A DNA stretch of 41,221 nucleotides from IMG/VR virus record IMGVR_UViG_3300031228_000002, positions 1 through 41,221 of that record. One strand, 5' to 3'. The DNA comes from a virus. Shown piece after piece: positions 3,498 through 41,221 of the stretch. A model generated the notes under the pieces. That model was not told where the DNA came from and did no database searches. It worked only from the letters and a program-made list of their open reading frames with translations. Each line of letters opens with the position of its first letter. The stretch's first letter is position 1. A program made the translations under genes and the position numbers.

Positions 3498-3701
3498 TCA
3501 GGCAGCGGCGCGCTGGGCGAGCCGGTCGCCGGCGGTCTTGGCCGACATCCACCGCTCGACATCGCGGACCGCGTAGAGGACTTCGCGTCCGACGCGGACG
3601 CCCTTGGGGCCAAGGCCGCGGTGGCGCATCTGCCTGATGGCGTGGGGGGTCTTACGGATGTGAGCCGCGAGTTCCTTCGTCGTCATGTACGGCGTATCCA
3701 T
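3498..3701 (-). CDS. Excisionase-like HTH protein (candidate Xis/RDF, 67 aa)
   Basis: From ATG 3701. TTKELAAHIRKTPHAIRQMRHRGLGPKGVRVGREVLYAVRDVERWM fits the HTH_17/MerR-type excisionase pattern. It lies next to the cro-like, cI-like and int genes. Confidence 0.6.
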   Translation of the reverse strand: MDTPYMTTKELAAHIRKTPHAIRQMRHRGLGPKGVRVGREVLYAVRDVERWMSAKTAGDRLAQRAAA

Positions 3702-3915
3702 GCCGTTCGCCTCCGTTCGTTTCCGGTTCGAGGTCCTGCACGGTGCAGCCGAGTTGGTTGGCGATTCGTGCGAGGACTTCGGGCTGAGGGTCGCTCTGGC
3801 CGCGTTCGATGCGGGAGAGGTGTGATGCAGAGACTTCGGCTGCGGTCGCGAAGTTGCGCAGGCCGTAGCCGCTGGTTTCGCGTCGCCTCCGGATCCCGGG
3901 TCCATCGGCCTTCAT
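3652..3915 (-). CDS. Cro-like Xre-family HTH regulator (87 aa), first gene of the early operon
   Basis: From ATG 3915. GYGLRNFATAAEVSASHLSRIERGQSDPQPEVLARIANQLGCTVQDL is an HTH_3 motif. It is divergent from the CI-like gene. Confidence 0.7.
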   Translation of the reverse strand: MKADGPGIRRRRETSGYGLRNFATAAEVSASHLSRIERGQSDPQPEVLARIANQLGCTVQDLEPETNGGERHGYAVHDDEGTRGSHP

Positions 3916-4118
3916 GGCGGAGACGATACGCAACGAACGGAAGGGATGCAAGGGGACGCGTTGGGATGGTTTCCGTTCGTGGCGGGGAGTGACGGCGGTG
4001 CTGCTTTCAGGTCACATTCCGGGGGTGCTCTCGCGCGCCGTGCAGGTCACCCTTACTCTGTTGCTGTTTGTTGCGCATCGTTGTGCGCATTTCGTTGACA
4101 GGAGAAGAGGCCACCCCC
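3916..4118. promoter_or_regulatory. Divergent cI-like / cro-like switch region with operator-like repeats
   Basis: A 10-bp inverted repeat acgaacggaa (3933-3942) / ttccgttcgt (3971-3980). Direct caggtcac at 4008-4015 and 4043-4050. TGCGCAT at 4072-4078 and 4084-4090. GC is lower than in the flanks. Confidence 0.6.
3923..3951 (-). promoter_or_regulatory. Candidate early promoter giving a leaderless cro-like mRNA
   Basis: On the minus strand: TTGCAT (3951-3946), a 17-nt spacer, TATCGT (3928-3923), then 7 nt to ATG 3915. Confidence 0.4.
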
Positions 4119-4526
4119 ATGAACCGCGACCCAGAAGCGTGGGCCCGGCTCGGCCGCGCACTCCGCTCCGCACGTGACCACCGAGGACTCACACAGCAAG
4201 AACTCGGAGAGATGGCCGGCACCTCCGGCCGCGCCGTCCAGGACGCAGAGGCCGGCACTGTGCCGAAAGCGCGCATGCCCTACACGCTCGGACGGATCGC
4301 GTCCGCACTCGGCTGGCCAGAGGGCGCCGTCGACGCGGTACTCGAAGGAGCAGCTCCGCCGGGTGAAGGGTGGCGCGATGTTCCGGCGCAGGCCGATGTT
4401 GAGGAGCGGTACGAGTCGATCCTCACGAACGCCATGGTGCGGGCGATGGAGGGGACGCCCGCTGCGGAGATCAAGAAGGCAACGAAGATTGCGTTGGACG
4501 AATTTCGCCGACAGGGCCTCTTGTGA
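4119..4526 (+). CDS. CI-like Xre-family repressor (135 aa)
   Basis: ATG 4119 follows GGAGAAGAGG. RGLTQQELGEMAGTSGRAVQDAEAG is an HTH. Plus strand, upstream of the integrase. Confidence 0.7.
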   Translation: MNRDPEAWARLGRALRSARDHRGLTQQELGEMAGTSGRAVQDAEAGTVPKARMPYTLGRIASALGWPEGAVDAVLEGAAPPGEGWRDVPAQADVEERYESILTNAMVRAMEGTPAAEIKKATKIALDEFRRQGLL

Positions 4527-4651: not shown

Positions 4652-4855
4652 ATGCCCAACCCCAGAGTCTTCACCGCTAACCTCGGGCCCAAAGTCGCCG
4701 CGGTCACCACGCAAATTGATGGGGAACCTGCGGCGGTCATCAACACACAGGCCGCGTACGACATGACGCTCCGCCGCCAGGCGGCGTGGGCGCTCCTGTG
4801 CGTCGGCCTGGACGCCGGACTCATCCTCGGAGCGCTTCATGGGATACGTCGCTGA
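4652..4855 (+). CDS. Small membrane protein between repressor and integrase (67 aa)
   Basis: GGGGAGCAGCAGC precedes the ATG. C-terminal hydrophobic helix AAWALLCVGLDAGLILGALHGI. It overlaps the int start by 17 nt. Confidence 0.5.
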   Translation: MPNPRVFTANLGPKVAAVTTQIDGEPAAVINTQAAYDMTLRRQAAWALLCVGLDAGLILGALHGIRR

Positions 4856-6101
4856 CCGCTGGCACAAGACCCGGCCCGGGCCGGACGAGCCGGAGTGCGG
4901 GGAGCACAAGGGCCGGGTTGCCTCGAAGGCGCACGGCGTCGGCAAGCGATGGCAGGCCCGCTACGACGACCCGAACGGACGCGAGATCACCAGCCTCTGG
5001 GCCACCAAGGCTGAGGCAGAGCGGGAGATCAACAAACAGGAGTCGGCGAAGCAGTCCGGTTCCTGGCTCGACCCGAAAGCCGGACAGATCACGGTAGAAC
5101 GCTTCGCACTGGACAGCTGGCTCCCGGCTCAGAACATCAACGGGCGCTCTGAGGCCGAGTACCTCGGGGCACTCCGTCGCTATCTGTTCCCCGCATGGGG
5201 CAGTCGGCAGATCCGATCCATCAAGCCGTCCGAAGCCGGCGCCTGGCAACAGTCGCTGACCAGCGAGCACAACCTGTCTGGGCAGTACCCGAACCGTGTG
5301 GCCCGGTACGTTCGCGGCGTGTTCAAACTGGCCGTCATCGACCGCGTCATCGCTGTGTCCCCGTTCGAGCAGATCCCAGCGCCGACGCTTGTCGAGTCGA
5401 CAGTCCAGCCGCCGGACGTCGCCGAGGTGAGGCAGCTCATTGCGGCCGCGCACAAGCCGATGTGGGGTGCCCTCCTCGAGGTGACCGCGCTGACCGGACT
5501 GCGGTCGGGAGAGGTGCGCGGCCTGACCGTGGACCGGACCGACTTCCTGCGCCGCACCCTGCATGTCGAGCAGCAGCTCGTCCAGGAGAAGAAGGGCGCC
5601 ATGTACCTGGACAAGCTGAAGACCGGAGCGGGGCGCCGCGTGGTGCCGCTGACGCAGCGCGCGGTCGATGTCCTTGCCGCGCACCTGGCGACCTATCCGC
5701 CGCGTACCGATGGCGACTGGCCGGGGCTCGTGTTCGCGCTGCCGCTCGGGAAACCGATCCAGGAGTCGTCACTCGACTGGGCTATCAAGAACATCTGCCG
5801 CCGCGCCGGGGTGAAGCCGCGGCACTGGCACGAGCTGCGCCACCACTACGCCTCGGTGCTGATCGCCGGGGGTGAGAACCCGAAGGTGGTGCAGAAGCGG
5901 CTCGGGCACAAGGACGTGATGACCACGCTGCGGACGTATGCGCACCTGTTCGCGGAGGCGGAGGAGCAGACGCGATCCGTTCTGGATGCGGCGTGGGCGG
6001 TCCCGGGTGAGACTGGCTCGGAGGCGGAATCTCTTGAGCAGGGCGGAAGGATTCCGGAATCCCGGAGCGGAGAGGGCGATGTTGTGCAGCTCAGGGCATA
6101 G
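4839..6101 (+). CDS. int: Tyrosine integrase (420 aa)
   Basis: C-terminal catalytic motifs HELRHHYASVLIAGGENPKVVQKRLGHKDVMTTLRTYAHLF. Typical actinobacterial N-terminus MGYVADRW. Confidence 0.9.
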   Translation: MGYVADRWHKTRPGPDEPECGEHKGRVASKAHGVGKRWQARYDDPNGREITSLWATKAEAEREINKQESAKQSGSWLDPKAGQITVERFALDSWLPAQNINGRSEAEYLGALRRYLFPAWGSRQIRSIKPSEAGAWQQSLTSEHNLSGQYPNRVARYVRGVFKLAVIDRVIAVSPFEQIPAPTLVESTVQPPDVAEVRQLIAAAHKPMWGALLEVTALTGLRSGEVRGLTVDRTDFLRRTLHVEQQLVQEKKGAMYLDKLKTGAGRRVVPLTQRAVDVLAAHLATYPPRTDGDWPGLVFALPLGKPIQESSLDWAIKNICRRAGVKPRHWHELRHHYASVLIAGGENPKVVQKRLGHKDVMTTLRTYAHLFAEAEEQTRSVLDAAWAVPGETGSEAESLEQGGRIPESRSGEGDVVQLRA

Positions 6102-6416
6102 GCCGGGACATCACGCCTGGATGTTCCAGGCGGAGAGCGCATGACGAGGTCAGGGTGTCGGATCGGGTTTCACCTGGGGTTTCGTGTGTGACGACGTATC
6201 CCAACGCATCTAATGACGTCATCCGAACGGACGGAATTTCCCCGGAATCTGGCACCCGAGCGGAACGCTTCCGGAACGTCAGACACCCTCTGACCTCTGG
6301 AACATCCGCCCACGAGTCCCCAGGAAGCAACGCTGCTCCGACCCCCGTAGCGGGGTCGGAGCAAAAGCGACCGTTTGGGTACTGACTCGTGATCATGGTG
6401 CGCGAAGCGTGGCGGT
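6102..6416. other. attP-containing region (core not resolved)
   Basis: Non-coding and lower in GC, immediately 3' of int. Contains a cluster of CGGAA(T/C) repeats at 6222-6279 and the 10-bp palindrome atgacgtcat at 6213-6222. Confidence 0.5.
6335..6362 (+). terminator. Hairpin downstream of int
   Basis: Perfect 11-bp stem gctccgacccc / ggggtcggagc with a 6-nt loop. No U tract. Confidence 0.45.
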
Positions 6417-6659
6417 GTGTCCGTTCGCCGCACCCCCCTACCAGCGCACGTCATCGAGCGCCGAAGACTCCTCGGTCTCCGCATCGCGCAACTCCGGCGC
6501 GCCGCCGGCCTGTCCCAGGACCAGCTCGCCGAACGTGCCGGCCTCGAGCGCCGCAGTATCCAGCGCTACGAGAGCGGCGAGCGAGACCCCCGCTTCACGG
6601 ACCTCGTCCTCCTCGCCGAAGGGATCGGGACCACGGTCGAAGACCTCGTCTGCGAGTGA
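6417..6659 (+). CDS. Xre-family HTH regulator (80 aa)
   Basis: GTG start. LRIAQLRRAAGLSQDQLAERAGLERRSIQRYESGERDP is an HTH_3 motif. Confidence 0.7.
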   Translation: MSVRRTPLPAHVIERRRLLGLRIAQLRRAAGLSQDQLAERAGLERRSIQRYESGERDPRFTDLVLLAEGIGTTVEDLVCE

Positions 6660-6693
6660 GCCCCGGCCGGAGCTGGGGGCTGCCGGCCGGGGC
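6660..6693. terminator. Bidirectional hairpin between convergent genes
   Basis: Perfect 11-bp stem gccccggccgg / ccggccggggc with a 12-nt loop, directly after the stop at 6659. Confidence 0.55.
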
Positions 6694-6701
6694 TACCAGC
6701 G

Positions 6702-6733
6702 GGACGCCCTGCCCTGCTCGCCGTCGGGCGTCC
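6702..6733. terminator. Second hairpin between convergent genes
   Basis: 8-bp stem ggacgccc / gggcgtcc with a 16-nt loop. Confidence 0.35.
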
Positions 6734-6748
6734 TGCTTCACCGCACCC

Positions 6749-6931
6749 TCAGGCGCGGGGCTGGGGAGCGGGCGGCCAGGTGGCGCCCGAGTACTCGTGA
6801 TAGTGGCTGCCGTCGTGCCCGGACGCCCGGGTGCAGCAGCGGGCCGGCGCGTCCGGCTTGGCATCCCAGCAGAGCGCGAGACCGGCCGGCCGGACAGGCG
6901 GGGACTGAAGGTTCGGGTTCACGGCCCACAT
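6749..6931 (-). CDS. Small Cys/His-containing protein (60 aa), translationally coupled
   Basis: ATG 6931 shares 1 nt with the upstream TGA (TGATG). GC3 is high. Sequence MWAVNPNLQSPPVRPAGLALCWDAKPDAPARCCTRASGHDGSHYHEY. Confidence 0.55.
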   Translation of the reverse strand: MWAVNPNLQSPPVRPAGLALCWDAKPDAPARCCTRASGHDGSHYHEYSGATWPPAPQPRA

Positions 6932-7116
6932 CACGACGCCACCTCGATCGGCTTGAGTCCGCGCTCCTCGCGGCACGGGGCGCACGCGTACAGCAGGACG
7001 TCCGGACCGGAGTTCCGGACGACGGACTGCACCGGCAGGGCGGTCGCCGCGCGCCCGCCGTGTTGATGGCAGAACGGCTCTGGGCTGGGCGGTGGCTGGT
7101 CTGTACGCTCGTCCAT
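6931..7116 (-). CDS. Small Cys-containing protein (61 aa)
   Basis: ATG 7116 follows AGGGAGGG. GC3 is high. Motifs CHQHGG...YACAPC suggest a zinc-ribbon-like protein. Confidence 0.55.
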   Translation of the reverse strand: MDERTDQPPPSPEPFCHQHGGRAATALPVQSVVRNSGPDVLLYACAPCREERGLKPIEVAS

Positions 7117-7286
7117 GACGAGGCCCTCCCTACGGGTGTCGTCCATACCCCCGAGCCGGTCGCACGGCGGCGGGGGTCTTCGCTGCCCACCACCGTAGCG
7201 CGAGTGCGATAGGTGGCATAGGTGCGATAGGGCAACTGGGTGGACTGATCTCGCCTGGCCGACGCCCCCGGCTTAGCGTCCCGAGC
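7117..7286. promoter_or_regulatory. Divergent intergenic region with phased direct repeats
   Basis: gtgcgatagg at 7203-7212 and 7221-7230. ATAGG(T/G) at 7208, 7217 and 7226 (9-bp phase). TAGCGT lies 7 nt before ATG 7287, which may give a leaderless mRNA. Confidence 0.45.
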
Positions 7287-7526
7287 ATGGAGTGGCAGCC
7301 GGAGATTCCCAGGTGGCGGCAGGTGTATGCGCTGGTCGAGGAGCGCATCGACAGCGGGGTGTACCCGCCGGGTGAGCGGCTCCCCTCGGCGCTCGATCTG
7401 GTGGAGGAGTTCGGCATCTCCCCGGTGACCGCGCGCCGGGTGCTGCGCGAACTCCGTACGGCCGGGCTCGCCTACATGGAGCCGGGTATCGGCACGTTCG
7501 TGTCGAGGCTGCCGGAGAAGGACTGA
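7287..7526 (+). CDS. GntR-family winged-HTH protein, DNA-binding domain only (79 aa)
   Basis: WRQVYALVEERIDSGVYPPGERLPSALDLVEEFGISPVTARRVLRELRTAGLAYMEPGIGTFV fits the GntR N-terminal domain. There is no effector domain. Confidence 0.75.
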   Translation: MEWQPEIPRWRQVYALVEERIDSGVYPPGERLPSALDLVEEFGISPVTARRVLRELRTAGLAYMEPGIGTFVSRLPEKD

Positions 7527-7582
7527 CGGGCCGTGCGGCCGGGCTATGTTGTGGCCCTCACTGTCAGTTGAGGGGGGACCTC

Positions 7583-8119
7583 ATGCGCGCCCGTATCGCC
7601 ATCACCACCGTCGCCGTGCTCTTCGGCACGCTCACCGCCTGCGGAAGCGGAGACACCAGCAACCCCGCCCCGAAAGACGACACGCCGAAGGCGTCCGCCA
7701 CTCCCACAGGGGAGAGGCAGACCGGGGCCCTCGACGCCGAGGCCGTCGCCACAGAGCTTCAGAAGACGGTCCCGAGCCTGAAGGTGACCGTCGTCTACAC
7801 GGAAGCATCGGACCCGAACCACCAGCTCGGCCGCCCCGGCGGCTACACCAGCAAGGTCACATTCTCCGACTCCCGGATCCCGGCCAAGGAAGTCGAGTTC
7901 ACGGACGAGCACGACCTGACGCGGGGCGGGAGCGTCGAGGTGTTCGACACCGCAGCCGCGGCGGAGAAGCGCGCGGCGTACATCCGCAAGATCGGCGAGT
8001 CCATGCCGACGTTCGCCGAGTACGACTATGTGCAGGGCCCGGTGCTGCTGCGCGTCTCCAAGATCCTGACGCCCACGCAGGCGAAGGAGTACGAGCAGGC
8101 ACTCGCCGAGCTGAGCTGA
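7583..8119 (+). CDS. Secreted lipoprotein (178 aa)
   Basis: ATG 7583 follows GAGGGGGG. Signal peptide MRARIAITTVAVLFGTLTAC has an LTAC lipobox. Confidence 0.75.
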   Translation: MRARIAITTVAVLFGTLTACGSGDTSNPAPKDDTPKASATPTGERQTGALDAEAVATELQKTVPSLKVTVVYTEASDPNHQLGRPGGYTSKVTFSDSRIPAKEVEFTDEHDLTRGGSVEVFDTAAAAEKRAAYIRKIGESMPTFAEYDYVQGPVLLRVSKILTPTQAKEYEQALAELS

Positions 8120-8134
8120 GCCGGAACCACGACA

Positions 8135-8176
8135 GCGGCCCCGCCGCCCGGCGCACTGCCCGGGAAGCGGGGCCGC
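8135..8176. terminator. Bidirectional terminator between the lipoprotein gene and the holin gene
   Basis: 10-bp stem gcggccccgc / gcggggccgc with a 22-nt loop, between convergent stops at 8119 and 8182. Confidence 0.5.
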
Positions 8177-8181
8177 GGGCG

Positions 8182-8397
8182 TCAGGTCCCCAGACCGGCG
8201 CCGTCGGTCTGCCCTGTGCCCCGAGCGGCCAGCCCCTTCAGCAGCGACAGGACCGCCGCGGAGCCAGCCACCGTGAGCGCGGCGCCCCACTCGAACGTGA
8301 TGACGTTGAACGGCTCGGCGGCCACTGCCAGTGCGGCAAGCGTGGCCAGGAACGTCATGCCGACGCGCTCTCCAAGGTCCTTCAGGTACTCGCTCAT
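8182..8397 (-). CDS. Holin, r1t-like (71 aa)
   Basis: MSEYLKDLGERVGMTFLATLAALAVAAEPFNVITFEWGAALTVAGSAAVLSLLKGLA matches the actinophage r1t-holin pattern. Only the last 71 codons of the 274-aa track ORF are used. Confidence 0.7.
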   Translation of the reverse strand: MSEYLKDLGERVGMTFLATLAALAVAAEPFNVITFEWGAALTVAGSAAVLSLLKGLAARGTGQTDGAGLGT

Positions 8398-8405
8398 CTC
8401 TGCTC

Positions 8406-40659: not shown

Positions 40660-41204
40660 GCGCGGGCCCCCGCCCCGGGCTGCGCGGGCAGTACGGCAGC
40701 GGCCGGCCCGGCAGGCAGCGGCAGCGCGCCCGTTCGCCACGCCTCGCCGATCGCGGCCTTCCCCTCATCCGGGACGGTCAGTCGCGTGTACGCCGCGCGG
40801 CCCTGCATCACGACGCCAGGCACCTCGTGGATGACGCCCGACTCGGGGTCGGCCCACTCGGCTGTACCAGCGGCCGTGAGCGCGGCGAGCACCTTCTTCT
40901 GGAACCCGGGCTTCACCTCGGTGACGAACCGGCGGGTGATCTCGCTGCCGTAGTTCTCAAGGACCCAGGTGGTGAACTTGTCGGGGTCGGTGACGGCGGC
41001 GGTGGGCTTGGGCTGGACGAGGCTCACGGTGCCGACGTCGGTGCTGTCGTCGAGGCTGACGGTGATCTTCTGGGTTCCGGTCTCGGCCTTGGCCTCCCGC
41101 AGGCCGGCTTCCAGTTCCTTCTTCGCGGTCTTCAGTTGGTCGCCGATGGCGTCGGCGAGGGTGGAGAGGACGGCGACGGTGCGCGCGGTGTCCTTGAGGC
41201 TCAT
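40656..41204 (-). CDS. Hypothetical early protein (182 aa)
   Basis: ORF track. AAGGAGA RBS. Its 5' end is duplicated at 1-78 by the terminal overlap. Confidence 0.7.
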   Translation of the reverse strand: MSLKDTARTVAVLSTLADAIGDQLKTAKKELEAGLREAKAETGTQKITVSLDDSTDVGTVSLVQPKPTAAVTDPDKFTTWVLENYGSEITRRFVTEVKPGFQKKVLAALTAAGTAEWADPESGVIHEVPGVVMQGRAAYTRLTVPDEGKAAIGEAWRTGALPLPAGPAAAVLPAQPGAGARA

Positions 41205-41221
41205 GTGTGGTCTCCTTGGGG
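41127..41221. repeat. Terminal direct repeat, right copy
   Basis: Identical to 1-95. Confidence 0.95.

Follow-up and report, generated by a model that had tools for sequence, protein, structure and literature searches.

A conserved element predicted to encode a cis-antisense RNA over the start of a mini-protein gene in temperate actinophages

The 41,221 bp metagenomic contig IMGVR_UViG_3300031228_000002, which was analysed in its entirety and is here termed the window, is a Streptomyces-type temperate actinophage genome with a high GC content (around 70%). An island of five small genes, at 6417-8119, encodes an Xre-type helix-turn-helix (HTH) protein (xre), two Cys-rich mini-proteins (mini2 and mini1), a short GntR-type protein (gntR) and a lipoprotein. 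The start of mini1 is covered by a conserved element that is best read as specifying, on the opposite strand, a cis-antisense RNA of about 68 nt; this predicted element, the main regulatory feature of the island, was overlooked in the initial annotation. The region as a whole is, on balance, probably a conserved secondary regulatory cassette in which the two mini-proteins would be doubly gated, with a layout like that of the immI region of phage P22 and a single variable cargo gene. The observations made in the initial annotation are confirmed, whilst its interpretation, as a lysogeny-side accessory island that might hold defence or superinfection-exclusion genes, is partly supported.

The element over the start of mini1

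Two hairpins, the first GC-rich and the second containing the Shine-Dalgarno (SD) sequence, make up the element together with the start codon and the initial codons of the open reading frame (ORF); it is present in a single copy in the window. Conservation over the approximately 70 nt preceding mini1 greatly exceeds that of any of the proteins. The features predicted on the strand opposite mini1 are:

7104-7109, plus strand: TACGCT, predicted antisense -10, inside codons 3-5 of mini1
7115-7184, plus strand: predicted cis-antisense RNA of about 68 nt, with two hairpins and a T-rich tail; start at approximately 7115-7117
7117-7143, plus strand: 5' hairpin of the antisense RNA, presenting the anti-SD CCCTCCC (7125-7131)
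7148-7176, plus strand: terminator stem of the antisense RNA, with its tail at 7177-7184

In an alignment of 69 distinct sequences, 98.1% of the 1032 cells in the antisense-strand helices are paired, and compensatory changes are found in eight of the 15 pairs. The values of all five covariation measures were reached by none of 500 shuffles, a statistic that, like the Wilcoxon tests, overstates independence as the sequences are related; slid controls gave at most 58%. An anti-SD (CUCC) lies in or beside the loop of the 5' hairpin in all three structural classes of the element. No match was found in Rfam at E <= 10 on either strand of 6000-8400. The first nhmmer profile under-called the element, as around 20 of the 26 loci lacking a profile match were found to carry it on inspection.

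These structural signals are specific to one strand. Where the sense strand would give an A·C mismatch, the same cell is a G·U pair when read on the antisense strand. The antisense folds have 173 G·U pairs against 70 in the sense folds, and for 55 of 76 sequences it is the antisense fold that has the greater stability. The eight nt that follow the hairpin are 56% T on the antisense strand. In the window, the 70 nt plus-strand RNA from 7115-7184 has a minimum free energy of -38.3 kcal/mol and a z score of -3.05, compared with a z score of +0.23 for the sense leader.

A further set of conserved positions lies within the coding sequence. Positions +8 (A), +12 (T) and +13 (A) of the ORF show 98-100% conservation across 74 distinct leaders, irrespective of the protein encoded downstream, and read as TAnnnT on the antisense strand; all three bases together occur in 0.3% of background ORFs, and there is no conservation past +14. 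The third base of codon 4 of mini1 is T in all 32 cases, with the amino acid varying between P, R, T, L, D and H. At one locus (L135) the start codon has moved by 3 nt, yet the TA is still found at the canonical spacing from the leader, and not from the start codon.

The same element could in principle function without any antisense RNA, as a portable 5' leader on the sense strand comprising a stabilising hairpin or RNase III site and a hairpin that sequesters the ribosome-binding site, like those restricting the translation of T4 homing endonucleases, with the conserved ORF positions acting as an initiation context. It does lie in the sense 5' untranslated region, where it immediately follows a sense -10 that is near consensus (TAGAAT and the like), and the SD is within the second hairpin on the sense strand too. 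However, both the G·U pairs and the fold stabilities favour the antisense strand, on which alone a T-rich tail follows the hairpin, and the invariant positions are exactly the T, A and T of TAnnnT, their distance to the leader being the one that L135 has kept. We regard this explanation as improbable.

Besides the relatedness of the sequences, a number of points weigh against the antisense reading. No conserved -35 was found before the antisense -10, which suits the sense-leader explanation; the terminator tail found in the window (TCTTCGCT) is weak as a U-tract; and a generic promoter and terminator scan of the region, using the E. coli consensus, found nothing relevant. The promoters, the transcription start site and the antisense RNA are all predictions made from the sequence. 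Two other identities were considered for the element. A promoter of the extracytoplasmic function sigma factor type (AAC-N16-CGAC), formed from the hairpin loop and a following CGAC, is disfavoured, since the loop in the window lacks AAC and the covarying stem would go unexplained, and a hammerhead ribozyme, suggested by CUGAnGA-like strings, was rejected, as its core motifs do not occur in the required order.

Island genes and candidate operators

The remaining features of the island, with its flanking hairpins, are:

6417-6659, plus strand: xre, 80 aa Cro/CI-type HTH protein; convergent with the mini-protein operon and adjoining the putative attP
6659-6694: hairpin with perfect 12 nt arms and a 12 nt loop, between the convergent xre and mini2 genes
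6749-6931, minus strand: mini2, 60 aa Cys/His mini-protein
6931-7116, minus strand: mini1, 61 aa zinc finger-like mini-protein, C16-x2-H19 ... C45-x2-C48
7191-7196, minus strand: TACGGT, predicted -10 of the mini1 operon, facing the antisense promoter
7204-7231: three 9 bp direct repeats (GTGCGATAGG / TGGCATAGG / TGCGATAGG), over the -35 and spacer of the mini1 promoter
7209, 7218 and 7227: phased triple of ATAGG direct repeats
7274-7279, plus strand: TAGCGT, predicted gntR -10, 7 nt before the ATG at 7287
7287-7526, plus strand: gntR, 79 aa, GntR winged-helix DNA-binding domain only
7583-8119, plus strand: lipoprotein gene, 178 aa, with an LTAC lipobox, a disordered linker and an alpha/beta domain of around 125 aa
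8129-8182: hairpin with 23 nt arms (83% complementary), separating the lipoprotein gene from the holin-like gene that converges on it and closes the late operon

All five ORFs exist as originally called, having coding-type composition (GC content at the third codon position, GC3, of 0.83-0.91 against about 0.5 at position 2), and the TGATG overlap, the Cys/His motifs, the LTAC lipobox, the duplicated GTGCGATAGG (7204-7213 and 7222-7231) and both flanking hairpins were all found to be present. The phased ATAGG repeats are likewise real, the triple being found at a single place in the window and in no shuffle out of 100, but each lies one base beyond the position first given to it (7208, 7217 and 7226). 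The hairpin at 6659-6694 is a probable bidirectional terminator.

The gntR product matches a single Pfam family, PF00392 (61.8 bits against a cut-off of 27, E 5e-17, residues 11-72), its alignment to the winged helix being full-length, as in HutC/YvoA-type regulators. The DNA-binding domains of YvoA/NagR are the closest solved structures, with AraR also a relative in the PDB. The protein ends at residue 79, without a C-terminal effector or oligomerisation domain of the FadR, HutC/UTRA, MocR or YtrA subfamily types, YtrA being the shortest GntR subfamily known. It had been described as truncated; however, the short GntR is 75-83 aa long in all 32 loci examined, and hence represents a stable domain-only family rather than a decayed gene.

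When the spacers between gntR and mini1 are compared, two or three tandem direct repeats of 9-10 bp are always found just upstream of the mini1 -10. Their sequence differs with the identity class of the GntR protein (CCTATCGCA, CCTAGCTAC, GCGGTAGAC, GCGGTAAGG and others) whilst their position is kept, as would be expected of operator-repressor co-evolution, so that the repeats at 7204-7231 are probably GntR operators. These candidate operators are unlike those of other GntR regulators, which are usually palindromes. A TAnnnT hexamer is present at the equivalent place in the mini1 promoter in all leader alignments. On the other side of the divergent region, TA(G/C)(C/G)GT followed after 6-7 nt by the start codon is conserved across all GntR classes; with the -10 this close to the start codon, the gntR mRNA would be leaderless.

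The xre product matches HTH_3 (54.8 bits) and HTH_31 (55.1 bits) in Pfam, at E 1e-14, and its gene has a GC3 of 0.83; a homologue of around 80 aa is found at the same place in many loci. PADLOC-DB gave generic HTH matches for xre and none for mini1, mini2, gntR or the lipoprotein, so the suggestion that the island holds defence genes found no defence-system model to support it.

Neither mini-protein had been thought to match anything recognisable, yet both belong to families. The mini1 family comprises 91 clusters at 50% identity among 1.84 billion representatives, with close homologues in metagenomes and two Streptomyces genomes, relatives in 45 IMG/VR contigs and a match to gp27 of Streptomyces phages of the Eklok/Ignacio group. 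The family alignment backs the 61 aa start, and C16, H19, C45 and C48 are invariant (C-x2-H-x25-C-x2-C). An AlphaFold2 model (predicted local distance difference test score, pLDDT, of 77.6) has a beta-hairpin knuckle bearing the C-x2-H, two strands and a helix beginning at the C-x2-C, a fold predicted to be a treble-clef-like, soluble zinc finger; searching the PDB with it using Foldseek returned nothing below E 0.7. The protein is slightly acidic and not hydrophobic.

The start of mini2 (GC3 0.89) overlaps the mini1 stop codon in the TGATG, base 6931 being common to both genes, and through this overlap mini2 is predicted to be translationally coupled to mini1. The public protein collection for the contig contains mini1 and the lipoprotein but no 100% match to mini2, which automatic annotation therefore appears to have overlooked. 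Its homologues P0010 and P0011 are 70-77% identical to it, and the family, which is rarer than that of mini1, has the pattern CW-x9-C-x5-GH-x-G-x-H-x-H-x-Y, with C21, W22, C32, G38, H39, G41, H43, H45 and Y47 invariant. There is no family for mini1, mini2 or the lipoprotein in Pfam, NCBIfam, PHROGs or PADLOC, the only matches being below threshold (AHH, E 0.16; phrog_33110, E 8e-4), and profile searches found no Ant, KilAC or Bro-N domain in either mini-protein. The searched literature describes neither these mini-proteins nor the conserved motif. They appear to be two new families of zinc-binding mini-proteins, and are candidate lysogeny effectors.

Small zinc-binding proteins also activate late genes in other phages. 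P2 Ogr, like mini1, is encoded between the late genes and attP, and the tight repression predicted for mini1 is what an activator of the lytic cycle should have. However, mini1 matches neither Ogr_Delta (PF04606; no match at E <= 1) nor any other Pfam family, is slightly acidic, and has a ligand pattern unlike the C-x2-C-x22-C-x4-C of Ogr/Delta proteins. A variant of this explanation, that mini1 is a recombination directionality factor, was rejected, as the family co-occurs with unrelated tyrosine and serine integrases; a separate excisionase-like (Xis-like) HTH ORF is in any case present in the early operon. An Ogr-like or directionality role is very improbable.

Genomic setting and recurrence in phages

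The window has an exact direct repeat of 95 bp at its termini (1-95 and 41127-41221), and hence is taken to be a circular assembly of a complete temperate phage genome of about 41.1 kb. Nearly all genes are on the minus strand, from the early region through the structural genes to a holin-like gene ending at 8182; the exceptions on the plus strand are a tyrosine integrase gene (int, 4839-6101), xre, gntR and the lipoprotein gene. As originally proposed, the island is outside the virion and replication modules, lying between the lysis genes and the putative attP and int. The 315 bp non-coding stretch at 6102-6416, which adjoins int and is of lower GC content, is a plausible attP. Within it, at 6334-6363, there is a perfect 12 nt inverted repeat (TGCTCCGACCCC / GGGGTCGGAGCA) followed by AAAAG; this may serve as the terminator of int or belong to attP. 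On the other side of int are the following:

3498-3700 (approximate), minus strand: Xis-like HTH ORF, heading the early operon
3652-3951, minus strand: Cro-like HTH ORF, divergent from the CI-like ORF
4068/4116-4526, plus strand: CI-like HTH ORF

The CI-like and Cro-like pair (3652-4526) is the candidate primary switch, separate from the island, and it is this divergent pair that adjoins the early operon; the gntR and mini1 pair was accordingly rejected as the main immunity switch. An ORF of 67 aa (4652-4855) overlaps the start of int. ARAGORN called a tRNA-His (87 nt, 955-1041) and a tRNA-Ser (93 nt, 41005-41097), both inside long ORFs of high GC3, on the opposite or the same strand, and these may be false positives.

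No match to the nucleotide sequence of the island was found in 50,697 phage records using either megablast or blastn mode. Its gene order is recurrent: lysin and holin genes, variable small genes, the short GntR gene, then mini1 and a second Cys-rich mini-gene on the opposite strand to it, Xre (in the same orientation as GntR) and an integrase. The integrase can be of the tyrosine or serine type, and the second mini-gene comes from several unrelated families. The divergent GntR and mini-protein core, usually with Xre, is kept at this position in approximately 40-60 phage contigs with different integrases, which is at odds with the description of the island as accessory; the lipoprotein alone is variable. 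In the sister phage L003 (37.6 kb) the complete island is present with its gene order unchanged, alongside a different integrase; this is the only other mini1 locus in which the lipoprotein was found.

The lipoprotein, for which TTG at 7568 is an alternative start, is predicted to be lipidated: it has a signal peptide and a lipobox (MRARIAITTVAVLFGTLTAC) conforming to [LVI][ASTVI][GAS]C, and Cys20 is invariant in 67 homologues. The core of its AlphaFold2 model has a pLDDT above 93. Its family (172 homologues, no Pfam entry) is common in Streptomyces, Lentzea, Amycolatopsis and Kitasatospora, including at ordinary chromosomal sites (L052). In two phages or prophages, L051 and L054, a homologue occupies the same genome position and follows a full-length GntR+UTRA protein with palindromic sites. 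The order at these loci (L054 432-3050; L051 3945-6540) is Xre, a 55 aa Cys-rich ORF, a 134 aa resolvase-N-like protein, GntR+UTRA and the lipoprotein homologue, and the palindromes in their divergent region are of the TGTTCTAG(N)ACA type. In the window, the lipoprotein, downstream of gntR, is the sole truly variable cargo of the island.

The reading of the initial annotation was of a prophage-expressed defence or superinfection-exclusion island, with the lipoprotein blocking DNA injection and the mini-protein pair being a defence effector under Xre and GntR control. The position between the lysis genes and attP does suit genes expressed in a lysogen, and is analogous to that of the P22 ant moron, which carries the superinfection-exclusion gene sieA (PMC2629481). 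The lipoprotein gene would be co-transcribed with a probable lysogenic repressor from the predicted leaderless promoter, its pairing with GntR recurs at the same position in L051 and L054, and its product weakly resembles the fold of a Corynebacterium phage lipoprotein (E 0.038), the matches in the PDB and BFVD all being weak (PknH sensor domain, E 0.036, template modelling score 0.37). It also resembles the Ltp, Llp and Cor proteins in being a prophage-borne lipoprotein with a signal peptide and lipobox. However, no sequence or convincing fold link to these injection-blocking proteins was found in Pfam, PHROG, PADLOC and structure searches; unlike them, the family is mostly chromosomal in actinomycetes; PADLOC gave its generic HTH matches only; and the mini-protein core, far from being accessory, is conserved, and seems to be kept silent instead of being expressed. 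Defence or exclusion is possible for the lipoprotein only, and as an account of the island is unlikely.

The element over the start of mini1 is more widespread than the cassette. Its antisense core pattern has 113 exact matches in IMG/VR, of which around seven are chance matches without a hairpin, and the module is predicted in over 100 actinophage contigs in this database, usually as a single copy. About half of the elements precede mini1. Some others have the same island context, with a short GntR, Xre and Int nearby, and are followed by Cys-rich proteins of 60-125 aa or DUF6415 proteins. The remainder are within co-directional structural or early operons, before genes encoding HNH_3, HNH, GIY-YIG, Bro-N-GIY-YIG or MUG113/T5orf172 proteins. 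Since no gene on the antisense strand of such operons could make use of the terminator, the transcript is likely to arise within the module. The modules of these free-standing nuclease genes (L056-L167), which come from unrelated actinophages, have their own near-consensus sense -10 (TAGAAT, TAAAAT or GATAAT) around 10 nt before the hairpin.

Three isolated phages have the module: Mycobacterium phage LilSpotty and Gordonia phages BlingBling (gp75) and Archis. In LilSpotty, the leader of the HNH endonuclease gp83 (L168 1398-2105), consisting of the hairpin, GGAGTCGAC and an ATG at L168:1555, lies inside the 5' part of the annotated CDS, and hence the true start is probably around 157 nt downstream of that annotated. 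The 14 nt motif strings are absent from the searched literature.

The order of the module appears to be a sense promoter, a hairpin doubling as the antisense terminator, the SD hairpin, the start codon and then about four codons that include the antisense promoter. It may be a portable, antisense-gated start module that has become fused to unrelated genes (homing nucleases, a Bro-N-GIY-YIG fusion and zinc finger mini-proteins) in phages of Streptomyces, Mycobacterium and Gordonia, where it would muzzle genes that are dangerous if leaky, and would in the window form, together with the mini-GntR, an immI-like secondary lysogeny switch; we put this forward tentatively.

Proposed regulation and comparison with known systems

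In the regulation that we propose, the domain-only GntR repressor would be made with the lipoprotein from a leaderless mRNA, in keeping with the conserved -10 and its spacing. In the prophage, GntR would occupy the three 9 bp repeats, as their co-variation with the GntR class suggests, and so shut the mini1 promoter. A constitutive antisense RNA of about 68 nt, starting at approximately the complement of the mini1 start codon and ending at an intrinsic terminator before the operators, would pair with the SD and start codon of any mini1 mRNA that escaped; the conserved -10, the covarying hairpins, the strand-specific G·U pairs and the T-rich tail all point to such an RNA. Between them, the repressor and the antisense RNA would hold mini1 and mini2 off until sense transcription outran the antisense pool, and this combination of repression and pairing would make their expression threshold-like. 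The lipoprotein would be captured, host-type cargo that may alter the surface of the lysogenic cell.

As to the mini-proteins themselves, they might be small protein-binding effectors, antirepressor-like or otherwise inhibitory, that are harmful if leaky. This assignment, which we draw from the double gating and from the start module shared with homing nucleases, is doubtful.

Three observations sit uneasily with the cassette as proposed. Proteins of the GntR family usually dimerise through a C-terminal domain, which is missing from gntR. Neither mini-protein is homologous to a known antirepressor or toxin, or to a member of any characterised family. Lastly, the mini1 homologues in L005-L010, L012 and L001/L002 (Eklok and Ignacio) have neither the short GntR nor the antisense module, in what looks like alternative control of the same gene. 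These GntR-less homologues follow an Xre-type protein of 280-426 aa, in many cases accompanied by a DUF6879 protein, and their short or absent leader is preceded by other tandem repeats (GAGAATCA, GAGAAACAC and GAGCAATC).

The nearest architecture is that of the P22 immI/ant moron, in which two repressors, the sar antisense RNA, ant and sieA are found together (PMC2629481). As in immI, a second regulatory region is located far from the CI/Cro switch and adjoins the late genes; a small putative repressor is divergent from a small-protein operon, with operator-like repeats between them; a small cis-antisense RNA is predicted to cover the ribosome-binding site; and putative surface or exclusion cargo is carried in the same moron. 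The two differ in that there is no sequence homology, the repressor has a GntR winged helix rather than the ribbon-helix-helix of P22, the gated products are predicted zinc-binding proteins of 60 aa rather than the Ant protein of around 300 aa, and the antisense promoter would be inside the first codons of the regulated gene. The resemblance is one of layout, and we do not claim membership of either the immI or the symE/SymR type for the cassette.

It is symE/SymR that seems the closest match for the combination of a transcriptional repressor with an antisense RNA overlapping the 5' end of a gene. In both cases one small protein would be multiply repressed, symE being held off by LexA, the SymR RNA, which is opposite the 5' end of the gene, and Lon (PMC1891008). 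That layout, of a small ORF, a cis-antisense RNA overlapping the translation initiation region and a transcriptional repressor, would also fit a type I toxin-antitoxin or abortive infection system, with mini1, alone or with mini2, as a toxin freed from its antisense antitoxin by prophage loss or infection stress, and the gating of nucleases by the same module elsewhere might be taken in the same sense. However, mini1 is predicted to be a soluble zinc finger and no membrane peptide, and the module also fronts homing endonucleases in structural operons, which are not addiction modules. We consider a toxin-antitoxin function quite unlikely. The symE gene is chromosomal and LexA-controlled, and SymE, which has an AbrB fold, promotes the cleavage of RNA; there is no sign of SOS control or toxicity at the mini1 locus.

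Two other systems resemble the module in part. The SAS/ESAS motifs of Cluster K mycobacteriophages are found just upstream of some start codons, with inverted repeats farther upstream, and so share with it the feature of a conserved nucleotide motif directly before the start codons of a subset of actinophage genes. However, their sequence is different, there are many SAS per genome whereas the module is usually single-copy, and the module reaches into the ORF and carries strand-specific signals of RNA structure. The free-standing homing endonuclease genes of T4 have their own cis elements that limit translation, involving sense-strand hairpins and promoter choice, and the module likewise fronts selfish nuclease genes of the HNH and GIY-YIG types; it would differ in the use of an antisense RNA, none being known for the T4 genes.

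If the antisense reading is correct, the element would represent a new and widespread family of cis-antisense RNAs in actinobacteriophages, with no Rfam family and apparently undescribed. A complete post-transcriptional off-switch would then be travelling as a module, together with the first few codons, and attaching to different genes, which would be relevant to the question of how selfish nucleases and other risky cargo are tolerated by phages. The module also corrects the annotation of start codons, as in LilSpotty gp83, and may offer a compact regulatory part for high GC hosts. For this group of phages, it would define a second, immI-like control region.

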